NCBI GenBank assembly: GCA_964618505.1
Contig: CAZUBH010000012.1
Location: 2,288 to 66,287 of the forward strand
From: an uncultured Thermoplasmatales archaeon
GTDB lineage: Archaea; Thermoplasmatota; E2; DHVEG-1
Length of the DNA: 64,000 bases
Direction: 5' to 3'
Made by a program: the position numbers and the translations under genes. This document shows positions 12,848 to 59,771 of the stretch, in pieces. Position 1 is the stretch's first letter. Every line of letters begins with the position of its first letter. Below the pieces are notes generated by a model. The model made no database searches, was not told where the DNA came from, and saw nothing but the letters and a program-made list of their open reading frames with translations.

Positions 12848-13660
12848 ATGGACTTTAAACAAAAATTTAAAAAGATATCTACAAAAAATGATAGTCTTTT
12901 ATGCGTTGGCCTAGACATTGATAAAAATAAGATGCCTGGTTTTCTGTTTAAAAAAGGTAAAAATCCTTATTTTGAGTTTAACAAAGCCATAATTAATTCT
13001 ACCAAAGATTTAGTTTGTGCATATAAATTGAATATGGCATTTTATGAAGCTTTAGGTGAAAAAGGAATAAAACTATTAAAACAAACAATGGAAATTATTC
13101 CCAAAAATGTAATTACAATACTTGACGGAAAGCGTAATGATATTGGCAATACAGCAAGAAAATATGCTGAATCATTATTTGAGTTTTATAGAGCAGATGC
13201 TGTAACGCTAAATCCATACATGGGCAGTGATAGTGTTTTACCTTTCTTAGATTATAAAGACAAATATAGCTTTATTTTGTGCAGAACTTCAAATCCTTCG
13301 GCTTCTGAATTTCAAGATATGATTTCAAATAATTCGCCTATATACAAACAAGTAGCAAAAAAGATATTTGAATGGAATGAGAATGAAAATTGTGGAGCAG
13401 TAGTTGGAGCAACATATCCCGAAGAACTTAAAGAGATAAGAGAAATTATTGGAGATAAAGCTTTTTTACTTATACCTGGAATTGGAGCCCAAGGCGGAGA
13501 CATTGAAAAAACAGTCAAAAATGGGATTAATTCTGATAGCAGTATGGCTATAATAAACTCCTCAAGGGGCATAATATACGCAGAAAATAATGAAAAATTT
13601 GCTCAAAAATCGAGAGAAAAGGCATTAGAAATACATGATAAAATCAACAAATATCGATAA
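12848..13660 (+). CDS. pyrF: orotidine 5'-phosphate decarboxylase, type 2
   Basis: VGLDIDKN... and ILDGKRNDIGNTARKYA match the OMPdecase type-2 active-site region (D-x-K-R-x-D-I-G-x-T). Confidence 0.8.
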   Translation: MDFKQKFKKISTKNDSLLCVGLDIDKNKMPGFLFKKGKNPYFEFNKAIINSTKDLVCAYKLNMAFYEALGEKGIKLLKQTMEIIPKNVITILDGKRNDIGNTARKYAESLFEFYRADAVTLNPYMGSDSVLPFLDYKDKYSFILCRTSNPSASEFQDMISNNSPIYKQVAKKIFEWNENENCGAVVGATYPEELKEIREIIGDKAFLLIPGIGAQGGDIEKTVKNGINSDSSMAIINSSRGIIYAENNEKFAQKSREKALEIHDKINKYR

Positions 13661-13895
13661 TATTGACGAAAAATTAATTAACTGCAATTATACTTTAATT
13701 ATGCCTTGATTCGAAGAGCTCCATGATAAAATGATTGGAGAAGCAAGTTCAAGGCGACAATTGATATCGTTTAGGGTCCCTCATCAATCTAAAAGACGAA
13801 ATGTCAAGATATGAGAATGAGGACAACCGCGTTATCATATAAATGTCGCGAGAAAAGTAGTAGATTATTCCTCTGCTGCTTACAGGATGATCTGT

Positions 13896-13931
13896 TGCTA
13901 ACACCCAACATTAAACTGTTGGGTGACAGCG
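13896..13931. other. stable hairpin: 9-bp perfect stem CACCCAACA / TGTTGGGTG with a 6-nt loop, inside a GC-enriched about 250-bp block (about 13690-13945) of a 580-bp spacer
   Basis: Read directly from the sequence. The block has higher GC than the flanks and no ORF. A long-range complement GCGACA (13754) with TGTCGC (13844) is also present. Confidence 0.35.
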
Positions 13932-14240
13932 ACTAAATTATGTTATTTTTTAACAAAAATTTAGATTTTTATTATCAAATTTTCTAACTTTCTGATATTA
14001 TGATATTAATGATTAATATTCGGATTTTTTAGATAGAGTTATATCCCAGTTGTATTATACACTTTAACAGTGGAGGCCAAAGGTTGTTCCCTTAATTACT
14101 AAAATATTGGCTTTATGGGAATGGGAGGCTTCTGATAGACATCTTTGATGTCTATGTAGTGCTGAAAACTTTAGGCTGGGTAAAAATACAAAATACTTGG
14201 ACATTTGAATTAGTGTGGGTTAGACTCATAAATCTGCAAG

Positions 14241-15365
14241 GTGAGGAAACAAATAATGAAGGTAGCAATGCTAGGATGGGAATATCCGCCTTTTAAGGTG
14301 GGTGGACTAGGTACCCACTGTTATGGACTTACTCGCAGTCTTGCAGATAAAAATGTGAAAATAGATTTTTATATGCCCAAAACCAAAAATTCATCTAAAA
14401 GTGATAAGGAAAATTTAAAGATTATTGAAGTGGGAGAGACTGAGATTTTTCCATATGATCGCCCAGAAGATAAAGAACTAGGTGGACACTTTTTTGAAAG
14501 TGTTTATAGATATAATGATTTGCTTGTACAAAAAGTCAAAGGCAAATACGATCTTATCCACTGTCACGATTGGCTAACGATGAAAGCTGCTATTAAGATA
14601 AAAGAAAATACTGGAGCTCCGCTTGTCTTAACTGTACATTCGACAGAGTATGACAGATCTGGTTGGTTGCATCCAAATGAATGGTTTATAAATATCGAAA
14701 AAGAAGGTATGCAAAAAGCAGATAAGATAATTGCTGTAAGTCATTTTACAAAAAGAGTTATAGTAGAAAAATATGGAATAAATCCTGATAAAATTTCAGT
14801 CGTTCATAATGCAGTCTATCCAATAGGTGAAAAAGAAAAGAAAAATTTAGTTTTATTTTTGGGAAGATTAACAATTCAAAAAGGGCCTGAATTTTTCTTA
14901 GAAGCTGCAAAAAAGGTTCTTGATTACGAGGATACAAAATTTGTAGTAGCTGGGATGGGAGACATGCTTCCTCGTTTAATTAACAAAGCAGTTGATTTGG
15001 GAATTTCAAATAAAGTAATATTTACTGGAAGATTATCAGAAAAAGAAGTAAGACACATTTACCAAATTTCAAATGTATATGTCATGCCATCAGTAAGCGA
15101 ACCTTTTGGAATAACAGCACTTGAAGCTATCTCTGCTGGGACTCCTACAATAGTATCAAAGACAGCTGGCGTTTCAGAGGCTTTTCAAAATTGTCTAAAG
15201 GTTGAGTTTTGGGATACAGATGAAATGGCTAACAAAATCATATCCTTGTTAAGATATGATCCTTTACATAGAACAATTGCAGATAATGGCCGAAAAGAAA
15301 TCGAGCTTTTTACCTGGGAACAAGTTGCAGACAAAACCATACAAGCATACAATGAGGCTATGTGA
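14241..15365 (+). CDS. glgA: glycogen (alpha-glucan) synthase-like glycosyltransferase (GT4/GT5, KxGGL motif)
   Basis: N-terminal EYPPFKVGGLGTH is the starch/glycogen synthase K-x-G-G-L motif. It has a C-terminal GT-B domain. A downstream paralogue follows. The start may be the Met at 14256. Confidence 0.7.
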   Translation: MRKQIMKVAMLGWEYPPFKVGGLGTHCYGLTRSLADKNVKIDFYMPKTKNSSKSDKENLKIIEVGETEIFPYDRPEDKELGGHFFESVYRYNDLLVQKVKGKYDLIHCHDWLTMKAAIKIKENTGAPLVLTVHSTEYDRSGWLHPNEWFINIEKEGMQKADKIIAVSHFTKRVIVEKYGINPDKISVVHNAVYPIGEKEKKNLVLFLGRLTIQKGPEFFLEAAKKVLDYEDTKFVVAGMGDMLPRLINKAVDLGISNKVIFTGRLSEKEVRHIYQISNVYVMPSVSEPFGITALEAISAGTPTIVSKTAGVSEAFQNCLKVEFWDTDEMANKIISLLRYDPLHRTIADNGRKEIELFTWEQVADKTIQAYNEAM

Positions 15366-26349: not shown

Positions 26350-27588
26350 TTAAATATTTTCCCATTCTCTTAGTACGGATTCCCATTTGTAGCTATCAAT
26401 GCCGTCTATTTCAGCAATTTTTCTTAGTATATTTTCATATCCTTTAACTAGTGTTCTTGTTCTAATTTTTACAATATAATCATAGGGTCCTGCTGTAGCA
26501 GTAACTCTTGTTACGCCTCTTACATTCCATATTTTTTTCATGGTTTCGTCTATTGGATATCCGGTTTTCATCTTGATAAAAATATAGGCTTTTGTTAATG
26601 TCAACGCAAATGAAAGTATTCCTAAAACCATTAATGAAATACCCATGGTCTTTATCAGTAATAAAACTGGATCTGTAGAAAAAGGTTCTATAATACCCAA
26701 ATAAGCAAGAACAATTGAAACAGGAAGTGTAAAAATTATTATGGACGATCTGACTGCCTGTACAACACTGGCTTTTCCAATACCCAGCGATCTAATATAT
26801 AATGTAAATGAAAAGAAAGTGCCTATAGCTATCAAAGCAATCCAACCAAAATTTTCTATTGAGGCAGATATGCTTTGTGCTACCCTATTAGTATTGTTAA
26901 CAAAATCAAATATCATTACAAAAATTATCGTAAAAATACACGCAAATGTGACATTCCAGAGTCTAATATTAATAGAATCGTTTGGAGAGTTTTTAATTTT
27001 CATCATTTTTAATTTTCTTTGACCGAGAGAAAATAAAACCCAACCCGGATTAATAACCAAAAATACCACTGCAAGGGATTGTAAACTTAACGATCCGCTC
27101 AGGCTAATCGAACCTAGAATGGCACCAAAAGTAACTATTGCAGAAGACTGTATCTCTACCAAGGTAGGTACATTTTTTTCAGTTATTGATTCAAAAATTA
27201 CTAGATATAAAATAACTACTTGTGAAAATGGTAAGACCACTGATGGATCGCCCAGCATAGATAATAATTCAAAATAGCCGAGTGTCATTATCGCATTGCC
27301 AAGGCCTGCAATAAGATGATATTTCAATTCTTGTTTTTTAATTAATCTTATTTTCTTAAAGGATGGATCAATTATTTTTGATCCAAGGCTTTTTTCTCCA
27401 ATTTTAATTGAAAAAAATAATGTGAACAAAAAGGAGACTAAGACCCCAAGTAAAAAAACTGAAAGACCTAGTACCCAAGGATCTTCGATAAATACTTTAA
27501 CTACTGCATCAAAACCAGACATTATTGCAGCAATTATGGATGAAGTAAATGCAAGAACATAAAATAGATATCTCTTTGTTATTTTCAT
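26350..27588 (-). CDS. multi-TM membrane protein with C-terminal Lrp/AsnC-type ligand-binding (RAM) domain
   Basis: About 10 TM helices over about 340 aa. The C-terminal about 70 aa (KIWNVRGVTRVTATAGPYDYIVKIRTRTLVKGYENILRKIAEIDGIDSYKWESV) resembles the betaalphabetabetaalphabeta RAM domain. The start overlaps the upstream RAM gene by 4 nt. Confidence 0.5.
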   Translation of the reverse strand: MKITKRYLFYVLAFTSSIIAAIMSGFDAVVKVFIEDPWVLGLSVFLLGVLVSFLFTLFFSIKIGEKSLGSKIIDPSFKKIRLIKKQELKYHLIAGLGNAIMTLGYFELLSMLGDPSVVLPFSQVVILYLVIFESITEKNVPTLVEIQSSAIVTFGAILGSISLSGSLSLQSLAVVFLVINPGWVLFSLGQRKLKMMKIKNSPNDSINIRLWNVTFACIFTIIFVMIFDFVNNTNRVAQSISASIENFGWIALIAIGTFFSFTLYIRSLGIGKASVVQAVRSSIIIFTLPVSIVLAYLGIIEPFSTDPVLLLIKTMGISLMVLGILSFALTLTKAYIFIKMKTGYPIDETMKKIWNVRGVTRVTATAGPYDYIVKIRTRTLVKGYENILRKIAEIDGIDSYKWESVLREWENI

Positions 27589-27833
27589 AATGCGATTTCT
27601 TTTTCAATTACCTGCGTAGTTGTTTTTTTAACGCCTTTAATCATTTGAAGTTTATTTGTAACTTTTAGAAGATTTTCTAAACTTTTTACATGAACTCTAA
27701 CAACTATATCATACTCGCCTGCAACAACAGAAATTTTTTCTACATTTTCTATTTCTCTCATTTCTGATATTGCTTTATTTGAGTCGCCGGGTTCCATTGA
27801 TAATAGTATATATGCATTTATCATATTTTGCAC
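27585..27833 (-). CDS. standalone Lrp/AsnC ligand-binding (RAM) domain protein
   Basis: 82 aa. INAYILLSMEPGDSNKAISEMREIENVEKISVVAGEYDIVVRVHVKSLENL matches the AsnC_trans_reg C-terminal domain pattern without an HTH. Confidence 0.6.
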   Translation of the reverse strand: MQNMINAYILLSMEPGDSNKAISEMREIENVEKISVVAGEYDIVVRVHVKSLENLLKVTNKLQMIKGVKKTTTQVIEKEIAL

Positions 27834-29668: not shown

Positions 29669-30115
29669 ATGTCTGATAATTACAAAAAAATAGAAGATAT
29701 ACTTGGCCACAAATTTAAAGATAAGACTCTTCTCAAAGAAGCTTTAACCCACAAAACTTATGCATTTGAAGCTGACAAACCTGTTGATTATAATGAAAGA
29801 CTTGAATTTTTAGGGGACAGTGTTTTAAACTTTATTGTTTCAGAAGAGCTTTACAAAAGCAATATGTTTCTTTCTGAAGGGGAACTTACAAGAAGAAGAG
29901 CATTCATTGTTAACAATAAAGTGCTGGCAAATATTGCTAAAGATATGTGTATAGGTAAGTATCTGCTATTTGGAGTTGGTGAAAAAAAACAGGATGGGCA
30001 AAAAAATGATACTAATCTTGCAAACGCATTGGAAGCGCTAATTGGGGCAATTTATCTAGACTCTAATATAAAAACCGTTAGAGAGTTTGTTTTAAACAAA
30101 ATTTTTACAAAATAA
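29669..30115 (+). CDS. RNase III catalytic-domain-only protein (Mini-III-like)
   Basis: ERLEFLGDSVLNFIVSEELY matches the RNase III signature ERLEFLGD. It is 148 aa with no dsRBD. Confidence 0.7.
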   Translation: MSDNYKKIEDILGHKFKDKTLLKEALTHKTYAFEADKPVDYNERLEFLGDSVLNFIVSEELYKSNMFLSEGELTRRRAFIVNNKVLANIAKDMCIGKYLLFGVGEKKQDGQKNDTNLANALEALIGAIYLDSNIKTVREFVLNKIFTK

Positions 30116-30543
30116 TATCTATTTAAAAATAAGTACAAAATATTTATAGAAAAATTTATATAATAAACATTTATCCCTTGTCTCAATCAAGGTAATCGAA
30201 TGGGGACCATTTTTCCTTTAAAATCATTCTCATCACCTCCCCTCCTCCCCATTCATTATCATTTATAAATTAATAAAAAAAATGAATTTTTAAATTTTAA
30301 ATTTTAATTATCCTGCTACCAATCTGATAACAATTCCAAATAGAAATACAGAGGATAATGTAATCAGATAGAATAGAGTCCTCTCCCAATCTTCCTCGAC
30401 TACTATTCCCATCCTTTTGTCACCGGATAACAGATTTTTTTTTAACTTTTAAACTTTTCTAAATTTTACTCGTCATATGACGACAATAAATAATAGAAGA
30501 TGTAATTAAGAAAAAATGCATTCCTATTATAGATGGTGATTTC

Positions 30544-40988: not shown

Positions 40989-41241
40989 TTATATACTAGT
41001 CATTGCATTTAGGCATTGCCAGGCATAAACGCAAGGCAATGTGGTGTTGGGATAAATGAAACTCTTTAACAAAAAACTTAAAATTTCATCTTCAAGCTTT
41101 ATCCTCCGATGCAATCCTATATACGCTGCAATAGATTTTGGGGGAGGTTTTAATCTTTTTAAGATAATAGCAGCATCCCTTAAACTACCGCATCCTTTCC
41201 TCAAAGAAAGAATATTTTCCGTCTTTCCTCCTGGAAATAAT

Positions 41242-41251
41242 GAGGTACCTC
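41242..41251. promoter_or_regulatory. perfect 10-bp palindrome GAGGTACCTC, first copy (the extended 11-mer is TGAGGTACCTC)
   Basis: Seen directly. It lies in the divergent intergenic region between the PAS regulator and the M28 peptidase gene. Confidence 0.4.
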
Positions 41252-41281
41252 TCTGTTTTGTCGCATCCCATGTCTCCTAGT

Positions 41282-41291
41282 GAGGTACCTC
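41282..41291. promoter_or_regulatory. perfect 10-bp palindrome GAGGTACCTC, second copy, 40 bp from the first and about 80 bp upstream of the 41370 ATG
   Basis: Seen directly. It is an exact repeat of the 11-mer TGAGGTACCTC. Confidence 0.4.
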
Positions 41292-41369
41292 CATCCCATC
41301 CATTTTATTATAATTATTTCTATTAAAAAAGTTTATAATATTGGAAATAACTATACTTAGTAGAGACAG

Positions 41370-59516: not shown

Positions 59517-59771
59517 TTATTCTCCGGAAAGGCTTTTTGTTCCTATCAGTGTTTTTGAATCAACAATACCTTTTTTTGATCTTATCTTGTTTATTACTAC
59601 ATCGCCGATAGAGTCTATATCGCCAGATTCGATTTTAATTAGAATATCATATTCTCCAAATAAGGGGTGTATCTCTGTAACTTCTGGCATTTGTTTTAAT
59701 GCCTGATATACTTCTTTTTCTTTTAGCGGGCTTATGCTTAATAACGCAAATCCTATTGCCATATTCCCCAA
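59517..59771 (-). CDS. standalone Lrp/AsnC ligand-binding (RAM) domain protein, paralogue of 27585..27833
   Basis: ALLSISPLKEKEVYQALKQMPEVTEIHPLFGEYDILIKIESGDIDSIGDVV aligns by eye with the 27585 protein. Confidence 0.55.
   Translation of the reverse strand: MGNMAIGFALLSISPLKEKEVYQALKQMPEVTEIHPLFGEYDILIKIESGDIDSIGDVVINKIRSKKGIVDSKTLIGTKSLSGE

Follow-up and report, generated by a model that had tools for sequence, protein, structure and literature searches.

What occupies the 580 nucleotides (nt) that lie between pyrF, the gene for orotidine monophosphate (OMP) decarboxylase, and a gene resembling that for glycogen synthase (glgA-like) in an uncultured archaeon of the Thermoplasmatota? The DNA analysed, called the window here, is a 64-kilobase (kb) AT-rich stretch (GC 0.311) of contig CAZUBH010000012.1, an identical contig (L001) being present in a Logan assembly, and with open reading frames (ORFs) of at least 80 amino acids (aa) counted, 13661-14240 is the largest gene-free gap in it; the median gap is 42.5 nt. 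A sequence-only reading of this DNA had picked out the long ORF-free spacer and a GC-enriched, hairpin-rich core within it, and had offered two explanations, a structured non-coding RNA or a long regulatory leader of the glycogen operon that follows. The length stands, as does the enrichment, which is real but modest (GC 0.37-0.40 over 13700-13950 against 0.19-0.30 in the flanks and 0.311 for the whole window), and of the two explanations it is the former that is supported, by conservation, compensatory changes, a promoter of its own and non-coding character. The core is, with a probability that we put at about 0.78 from sequence comparison, an independent gene of ~235 nt for a box H/ACA guide small RNA (sRNA), with its own promoter of transcription factor B recognition element (BRE) and TATA box directly 3' of pyrF. 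Such an sRNA is most likely a new member of a well-known RNA class, with an unusual conserved 3' domain.

Is there a structure, and is it shared by relatives? Comparison with shuffled controls and a search for covariation in related genomes were among the checks that the sequence-only reading had proposed, and both came out in favour of structure. On the + strand, 13690-13950 folds at -73.9 kcal/mol, against -52.5 +/- 4.7 for shuffled sequences (z -4.56, with none of 200 shuffles as good); the - strand has a z of -3.4, and G.U pairs favour the + strand. Among 80 related glgA loci, taken from metagenome-assembled genomes (MAGs) named Thermoplasmatota, Thermoplasmatales or Thermoplasmata, ~13667-13937 is conserved at 72-82% nucleotide identity (BLAST and nhmmer) in 24, and there is one further copy, L025, cut by a contig end; with further metagenome loci included, the core is found in about 30 related Thermoplasmatota contigs altogether. 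An alignment of 25 sequences (A1; L214-L219 are additional loci) was the basis for predicting consensus stems with RNAalifold. Standard pairs fill 94.7% of the cells of the resulting consensus structure, against 31-43% with slid partners, 13 pairs change on both sides, and none of 500 shuffles matches the observed value on any of five measures.

What kind of RNA would this be? An archaeal H/ACA RNA has one to three hairpins, about 65-75 nt each, with a kink-turn (K-turn) or kink-loop (K-loop) (PMC2377435, PMC4652768, PMC3608112). Pocket and K-turn are joined by a helix of 5-6 base pairs (bp), and about 8-11 layers are stacked between the pocket and the second G.A (PMC2377435, PMC4652768); the 3' pocket strand has 5-6 nt, and the ANA box, unpaired and right after the lower stem, lies 14-15 (up to 16) nt from the pocket top (PMC2377435, PMC4652768, PMC3608112). 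The two guide strands, 4-8 nt each, pair with a substrate RNA to the left and right of an unpaired U-N. Across the 25 sequences, and with compensatory changes, both of the first two hairpins of the core have the layout of lower stem, internal-loop pocket and upper stem. Hairpin 1 keeps to all the structural rules, with 8-10 layers from pocket to second G.A, a 6-nt 3' guide and ACA at 14 nt. Its lower stem is (G)CCUUGA/UCAAGG(C) in the alignment, its internal-loop strands are UUCGAAG(AG) and (AA)GCAAGU, its apical loop is variable, the invariant UGA and UGAU give U.U, G.A and A.G right above the upper stem, and the ACA, 1-2 nt past the stem, is invariant or nearly so. Compensation in the upper stem is full in one relative (L069, CACUC/GAGUG) and partial in others (L040 and L217, AUCCA/UGGAU; L214, CUACA/UGUAG), and in L047 a 16-nt insertion converts the K-loop into a true K-turn with a real C-stem. 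A variant 3' guide was seen in L214-L216, GCAAC and not GCAAG, with an adjoining stem position changed from A to U; this is either a lower-stem register shift or a hint of a different ribosomal RNA (rRNA) target.

Hairpin 2 follows the same rules at their edge, with about 9-10 layers if one bulge is accepted. In the alignment its pocket strands have the consensus AUUAGGGU and AYAACC. The upper stem, CCUCUU/AAGAGG, varies by swaps of A-U with U-A and of C-G with G-C, and pairing in the lower stem reaches 97.5%, with changes that are G.U-compatible. The A-n-A (alignment columns 217/219) is invariant, and a GA opposite AAGA-nnU-GA is conserved and reads as a K-turn. One of the long-range complements that the sequence-only reading had listed, CCTCAT (13779) with ATGAGG, proves to be the upper stem of this hairpin, though ATGAGG begins at 13817 and not at 13816. 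The other, GCGACA (13754) with TGTCGC (13844), does exist as a complement, but its pairing is specific to the window, and relatives pair TGTCGC with an invariant GCGAC at 13929-13933 that belongs to the 3' domain.

Is the RNA a transcript in its own right? The promoter consensus has invariant positions over the 25 aligned loci, and the TATA box is recognised in 23 of them, its end 22-26 nt before the first stem, which is the standard archaeal spacing; from that geometry transcription would start 0-3 nt before hairpin 1. A run of six T follows the core, and a run of at least four T lies within 60 nt 3' of the element in 18 of 25 relatives. The element is always on the + strand, 40-100 nt past the pyrF stop, and its presence coincides exactly with that of pyrF upstream of glgA; the 55 of the 80 glgA loci with no pyrF upstream have no element. 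Contigs reached through pyrF relatives in the protein database have the element as well, no gene is called in the gap, and as to other gene contexts, sought by that route, all the contigs fetched keep the order GT28-pyrF-RNA-glgA. A profile search (nhmmer) finds one copy only in the window, and when viral contigs were scanned with an invariant 16-mer of the element, all 10 matches were isolated ones due to chance, with the element itself absent. One carrier, the source of locus L003, is a complete genome (CP070724.1, Thermoplasmatales archaeon bin45).

If this is a guide, what would it guide? There is no rRNA in the window and none in 81 related loci, and the rRNAs of others served as proxies: E. 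coli rrnH, a haloarchaeal rRNA operon from a Halomicrobium plasmid, and archaeal 23S rRNA from metagenomes. With the E. coli rRNA there was no convincing site, only a chance match in a variable region of 16S. With that of Halomicrobium the guides of hairpin 1 point to the 3' end of helix 89 and those of hairpin 2 to the helix 92 A-loop. The invariant GAAG of the guide predicts CUUC in the target, as in yeast 25S. A first metagenome scan, with the haloarchaeal CCUCGA and the full predicted A-loop site, found nothing. For a second scan one half-site per hairpin was specified, CTTCGATGTCGG, then 36-42 nt, then GGTTGTTC, and 120 stretches were returned, 95 of them archaeal 23S genes. All 95 carry the half-site of hairpin 1 that had been left unspecified (92 as CUUGC, 3 as UUUGC), followed by U-A at the exact spacing. 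The resulting target, GCUUGC[U]A CUUCGA, would pair 6+6 bp with the guide of the window; in each of five 23S sequences no other site is as good, and of 300 shuffled guides only 2 reach its score.

The target uridine of hairpin 1 aligns with E. coli C2496. In P. abyssi, motif 1 of Pab40 is the guide for Psi2588, a pseudouridine (Psi) of helix 89 that is described as shared with eukaryotes (PMC2377435). The conserved Psi sites at 2588 and 2603 lie 39 and 54 nt beyond that at 2549, spacings that set the numbering offset at 92, and with this offset the hairpin 1 site would be Psi2588 itself. The offset agrees with Psi2826, Psi2865 and Psi2880 of yeast, where the equivalent of 2496 is pseudouridylated. 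For hairpin 2 the candidate target lies in the A-loop and reads GGUUGU[U]C GCCC, a pairing of 6+4 bp, in which the uridine would be U2555 or, if the arrangement is UNN, U2554, and the U/C variation in the guide of this hairpin remains compatible with G2553; judged from these pairings the A-loop assignment is plausible. Thermoplasmatota have U at both 2554 and 2555 (PMC9976906). Under the guide reading the 23S of the carriers is expected to hold GCUUGCUACUUCGA-like and GGUUGUUCGCCC-like sequences, the latter at E. coli 2549-2560; among the rRNA contigs fetched, none could be linked to this lineage through shared flanking proteins. Seen in passing among the metagenome sequences (L084-L203), many archaeal 23S have U at E. 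coli 2499 (CUUCGAUG), where E. coli and Halomicrobium have C. That U is presumably found in eukaryotes too.

What of the remaining part, the 3' domain? Its consensus fold is a three-way junction, and the perfect 9-bp hairpin that the sequence-only reading had noticed there is one arm of it, P3b, of invariant stem sequence. The other arm, P3a, has in the 25 relatives a stem that differs in sequence with pairing kept (8-17 bp) and an 11-20 nt loop that always contains CUGCUG(C). A canonical third guide unit of the Afu4/Pf7 kind was considered for the domain and ruled out, there being no K-turn, no pocket, no ANA at 14-16 nt and no complementarity to helix 69. What its invariant blocks do complement is consecutive pieces of helix 91 of 23S, as seen in archaeal 23S from metagenomes, where the commonest type recovered reads 5'-CAUCCUG GGUGU GCAGCAG CACCCAA-3'. 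The P3a loop CUGCUGC complements GCAGCAG, the loop of helix 91, which almost all of the archaeal 23S recovered have in common; ACACCCA complements UGGGUGU and UUGGGUG complements CACCCAA. As an unrestricted bipartite search was far too permissive, the usable form of test was the coverage of helix 91 by k-mers: the domain of the window covers 25 of 25 nt, which none of 1000 shuffles does, and that of L042 covers 21 of 25 nt, which 20 of 1000 shuffles do. With RNAduplex the long blocks of the domain, stems included, were not above shuffles against rRNA. The complementarity is one measured on the rRNA of other lineages, and the helix 91 stem varies among archaea. Over the metagenome archaeal 23S (L084-L203) the helix 91 loop UGCAGCAG is almost invariant and the stem covaries.

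Helix 91 sits between the two predicted target sites in 23S, and because of that position and the complementarity the 3' domain may be a docking or unfolding module. In that case CUGCUGC would pair loop to loop with helix 91, the two strands of P3b would pair with those of its stem, and the domain might also unfold helix 91. A composite particle for 70 nt of 23S domain V (E. coli 2490-2560), two guide hairpins together with a 3' domain that anchors on helix 91, is on present sequence comparisons a doubtful proposal, worth stating for its consequence: an H/ACA sRNA of an archaeon would then contain, as part of the same transcript, a module for docking on rRNA or for acting as a chaperone. Such functions have so far come mainly from eukaryotic small nucleolar RNAs (snoRNAs) such as snR10 and snR30.

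How might the whole work? Hairpins 1 and 2 would each bind L7Ae at the K-loop or K-turn, and Cbf5-Nop10-Gar1 would bind the lower stem and the ACA or ANA box of each; the internal-loop strands would pair with 23S rRNA on both sides of a uridine, which Cbf5 would convert to pseudouridine. For hairpin 1 that uridine is most likely the one at E. coli 2496, where helix 89 of the peptidyl-transferase centre has its 3' end, and for hairpin 2 it is possibly one of the helix 92 A-loop, U2555 or, in the UNN arrangement, U2554. The non-canonical 3' domain may dock the particle on helix 91.

Could the element instead be a leader, a riboswitch-like or protein-binding 5' untranslated region (UTR), acting in cis on the operon of glgA, GH57, glycosyltransferase (GT) and debranching enzyme by fold-dependent read-through from the conserved promoter? 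At every locus where it occurs it does lie upstream of glgA on the same strand, in 7 of 25 relatives the 60 nt 3' of it hold no run of four T or more, and a scan for intrinsic-terminator-like hairpins found none. However, the 55 glgA loci without the element have the same downstream operon, the element tracks adjacency to pyrF, after which it has its own BRE/TATA, T-runs follow it in most relatives, and then come ~300 nt of unconserved AT-rich DNA with a separate promoter-like motif before glgA, where the closest relatives have a canonical CGAAA-TTTATA promoter. Its invariant unpaired nucleotides fall where guide strands, K-turns and ANA boxes would have them, and they complement rRNA; nor is there an alternative pairing, of the expression-platform kind, that takes in the ribosome-binding site (RBS). 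A cis-acting leader would be expected to have no promoter between it and its gene and to co-occur with the gene that it regulates, and that is not what is found. The anatomy is that of a trans-acting H/ACA guide, and the leader part of the sequence-only reading is, on these grounds, decidedly improbable. A structured sRNA of some other, undescribed function, a protein sponge or a chaperone of rRNA processing for instance, in which the H/ACA features would be coincidental or vestigial and no pseudouridylation guided, is improbable as well. The absence of an Rfam match would suit it, as would the statistically weak match of hairpin 2 to its target and a 3' domain that makes up about 40% of the RNA, is not H/ACA-like and yet has the longest invariant block; the helix 91 complementarity suggests an antisense or chaperone role. 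But a pocket, a K-turn or K-loop and an ANA at 14-16 nt in two consecutive hairpins are hard to obtain by chance, and hairpin 1 matches a known Psi site with 6+6 bp.

Protein coding is harder still to credit. Many relatives have a stop-free frame of 50-60 codons over hairpin 2 and the 3' domain, and the window has ORFs of 27, 41 and 51 codons, which might suggest that a small gene, or a pseudogene in decay, lies between pyrF and glgA. In the window, though, the frame open in relatives is broken, and the ORFs of the window are interrupted by stops in 21-23 of 25 relatives and have lengths that shift the frame in 6, 18 and 19 of the 25; variable columns number 29, 27 and 25 of 44 at the three codon positions, with no third-position excess, the indels of 1-16 nt sit in loops, and gene callers call nothing in the gap on any contig fetched. 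What about a divergent signal recognition particle (SRP) RNA or RNase P RNA, or the RNA of a mobile element, which a size of ~235 nt and a raised GC in an AT-rich genome bring to mind? It is just as far-fetched. The sequence-only reading could match neither SRP RNA, RNase P RNA nor a C/D-box RNA by eye, and the searches agree: Rfam 15 at gathering thresholds finds in the whole window only a tRNA, elsewhere, and nothing in the spacer, where at E up to 10 there are only chance matches (csRNA, E 0.7; a CRISPR repeat, E 7.9), ARAGORN finds nothing in the spacer, and there are no C/D boxes. The single copy in the window, the mere chance matches of the 16-mer in viral contigs and the lack of an adjoining transposase or nuclease gene all speak against a mobile element.

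The preferred reading, of an independent H/ACA guide sRNA, has its own difficulties, and they should be set out together. No Rfam H/ACA family matches even at E up to 10, and the third domain has neither pocket nor K-turn. The lower stem of hairpin 1 has 6-8 bp, against 7-9 in Pyrococcus. In hairpin 2 the distance to the ANA is 16 nt if the target is read as UN and 15 nt if as UNN, at the border of the 14-16 range, the helix between pocket and K-turn needs its bulge, the K-turn has A in the window where 22 of 25 sequences have G, and a helix GUCC/GGAY can close part of the pocket and so competes with it. As to targets, the 23S sequences compared are those of other lineages and not the carriers' own. 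In Halomicrobium, the sole archaeal rRNA chosen without the guides in mind, a C.A mismatch (CCUCGA) falls within the hairpin 1 site, which is slightly outscored by another, and 52-56 of 300 shuffles do as well as the hairpin 2 match, which is not significant alone. Every instance found has the RNA upstream of glgA, so that context alone does not separate RNA from operon, and none of ten small window ORFs examined is an H/ACA protein (Cbf5, Nop10, Gar1 or L7Ae).

Which known systems come closest? The three-motif family of Afu4, Pf7, Pab40 and Pho40 (Archaeoglobus, Pyrococcus; PMC2377435) is likewise a multi-hairpin transcript, with an ANA box and a K-turn or K-loop in each unit. By the offset of 92 the Psi2588 target of Pab40 motif 1 would be the site predicted for hairpin 1, and with the same offset the position once proposed for Afu4 motif 2 coincides with the one that hairpin 2 is predicted to target in the A-loop. 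That proposal, A. fulgidus 2601 (P. abyssi 2647), is disputed by Muller et al. E. coli 2586, which corresponds to their preference for Afu4 motif 2, was considered as a target for hairpin 2 and set aside, as by eye it does not pair with the 5' guide. The sRNA does not have the three H/ACA motifs of that family: its third unit lacks the pocket, the K-turn and the match to helix 69, which is the target of their motif 3. No similarity to the family was detected, in the sense that Rfam has no match, the family sequences themselves not having been compared, and the hosts here are mesophilic, AT-rich, uncultured Thermoplasmatota. The single-hairpin models Pab91/Pf9 and Afu46 resemble hairpin 1 in their succession of lower stem, 5' guide, 5-6 bp helix and 6-nt 3' guide, in a K-loop with U.U and tandem sheared G.A, and in an ACA 14-15 nt below; they differ in that the lower stem of hairpin 1 has 6-8 bp and not about 9, in the rRNA site, and in that hairpin 1 sits in a longer RNA. 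Yeast snR46 (25S Psi2865) and snR10 (25S Psi2923) presumably guide the positions equivalent to E. coli 2496 and 2554. A non-guide role of snR10 in pre-rRNA processing parallels the docking-domain idea. Both are eukaryotic snoRNAs of the hairpin-hinge-hairpin-tail type, without K-turns and from separate genes, and no homology is claimed. For an added module that is not H/ACA, Pab21 of Pyrococcus, an H/ACA guide with an extra C/D-box motif, is a precedent (PMC2377435); the extra module here is without C/D boxes and is a three-way junction with rRNA-complementary blocks.

What would follow? Rfam and literature searches turned up no H/ACA guide RNA described for uncultured sediment-dwelling Thermoplasmatota, for which this is a first candidate. 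Two pseudouridines are predicted in the peptidyl-transferase centre, and Pyrococcus and eukaryotes share the site of one of them; the prediction bears on the antiquity of RNA-guided modification of the catalytic core of the ribosome. The helix 91 complementarity hints, in a way that can be tested, at modules for docking on rRNA within archaeal guide RNAs. A false lead is removed, there being no unusual structured leader on this glycogen operon, and a covariance model started from the alignment can help to annotate these MAGs.

Table 1. Features of the spacer and its borders, in window positions.
Feature	Position	Strand	Basis or remark
pyrF (OMP decarboxylase), 5' neighbour of spacer	12848-13660		
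Archaeal promoter: BRE-like CGAAA 13667-13671 and TATA box TTAATTAA 13674-13681	13667-13681	+	consensus GCGAAAcnTTAATTAA
Candidate sRNA gene, two H/ACA guide hairpins and 3' domain, ~235 nt	13702-13937	+	nhmmer 13701-13935; ends putative
H/ACA hairpin 1	13703-13759	+	RNAalifold, pair counts
Hairpin 1 lower stem GCCUUGA/UCAAGGC	13703-13709/13749-13755	+	
Hairpin 1 5' guide UUCGAAG; 3' guide GCAAGU	13710-13716; 13743-13748	+	
Hairpin 1 upper stem CUCCA/UGGAG	13719-13723/13736-13740	+	
Hairpin 1 K-loop UGA...UGAU	13724-13726/13732-13735	+	
Hairpin 1 ACA box	13757-13759	+	14 nt after first nucleotide of 3' guide
H/ACA hairpin 2	13762-13841	+	alignment, RNAalifold, pair counts
Hairpin 2 lower stem UGAUAUCG/CGUUAUCA	13762-13769/13830-13837	+	8 bp
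Hairpin 2 5' guide UUUAGGGU; 3' guide ACAACC	13770-13777; 13823-13828	+	
Hairpin 2 upper stem CCUCAU/AUGAGG	13779-13784/13817-13822	+	
Hairpin 2 K-turn-like AA-UC / AAGA-UAU-GA	13786-13789 / 13806-13814	+	
Hairpin 2 inner hairpin GAC/GUC	13795-13797/13803-13805	+	
Hairpin 2 ANA box AUA	13839-13841	+	one nt past stem
3' domain, three-way junction	13845-13933	+	consensus fold of 25 sequences
P3 GUCGC/GCGAC	13845-13849/13929-13933	+	sequence invariant; closes P3a and P3b
P3a, long covarying hairpin	13856-13899	+	invariant loop CUGCUGC 13873-13879
P3b CACCCAACA/UGUUGGGUG	13902-13910/13917-13925	+	stem sequence invariant, CACCCAAC/GUUGGGUG in alignment
3' domain junction ACA	13926-13928	+	
T6 run, likely archaeal termination signal of sRNA	13946-13951	+	read from sequence; putative function
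Conserved promoter-like motif TTTTTTAGATAGAGTTATAT	14025-14044	+	putative function
RBS GGTGAGG and probable true start ATG of glycogen-synthase-like gene	14240-14246; 14256-14258	+	invariant in alignment A2

What then is the rest of the spacer? Downstream of it come the GT4/GT5 glycogen-synthase-like gene, a GH57 enzyme, a second glycosyltransferase and a debranching enzyme. In an alignment of the window with its five closest relatives (A2), 13950-14255 is unconserved save for the motif at 14025-14044 and the RBS, and the fold of 14040-14260 is near that of shuffles (z -1.0 and -1.3 on the two strands); in its downstream half the spacer consists of promoter and 5'-UTR DNA of the ordinary kind. 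A second 9-bp hairpin that the sequence-only reading had listed, 14135-14143 with 14147-14155, exists, but it is not conserved even in the closest relatives and is outside any conserved element. Within the AT-rich DNA the motif, in the form TTTTnAGATAnnnTTATAT (A2 columns about 140-170), is invariant in all six sequences; it is probably a promoter or operator of the glycogen operon and not of the sRNA, and if a promoter, the glgA 5' UTR here would be about 190 nt. Four relatives (L002, L003, L004 and L007) have a canonical BRE/TATA (ACGAAAAGTTTATAGATA) about 140 nt before glgA (A2 columns about 305-345), in place of which the window holds, at 14110-14160, GGGAGGCTTCTGATAGACATC, the 14135-14155 hairpin included; the window may have lost or altered one of two promoters. 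The start of the glgA-like gene in the first-start ORF listing, GTG at 14241, falls within the conserved RBS GGTGAGG; the gene called in L001 begins at the position equivalent to 14256, and judged from the alignment the real start is probably that ATG, making the gap ~595 nt.

Among the loci compared, two other observations were made. A 2.2-kb contig (L066, JAUVXD010000032.1) labelled as from an Acholeplasmataceae bacterium MAG has an archaeal glgA (84% identity) and a GH57 gene, and is probably a mis-binned archaeal contig. At L217 a DDE_Tnp_1 transposase gene (1371-2297) lies between the GT28-like gene and one for 613 aa of an otherwise conserved block, and looks like a recent insertion sequence (IS) insertion beside the locus.

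Elsewhere in the window, stand-alone AsnC/Lrp ligand-binding-domain proteins of about 82-84 aa are encoded at 27585-27833 (-) and 59517-59771 (-), each beside a longer-than-average gap. The gene-free gap at 40989-41369 (381 nt) has a 45% GC island near 41200 and a fold z of about -2.8 on both strands; a further small RNA may lie there, or an ORF that is short or in decay. RNase III-like proteins are uncommon in archaea, and a 148-aa ORF at 29669-30115 (+) matches such families (Ribonucleas_3_3, E 7e-36); 3' of it there is a gene-free gap of 428 nt (30116-30543) whose + strand has a fold z of about -4.8 by a simple shuffle.

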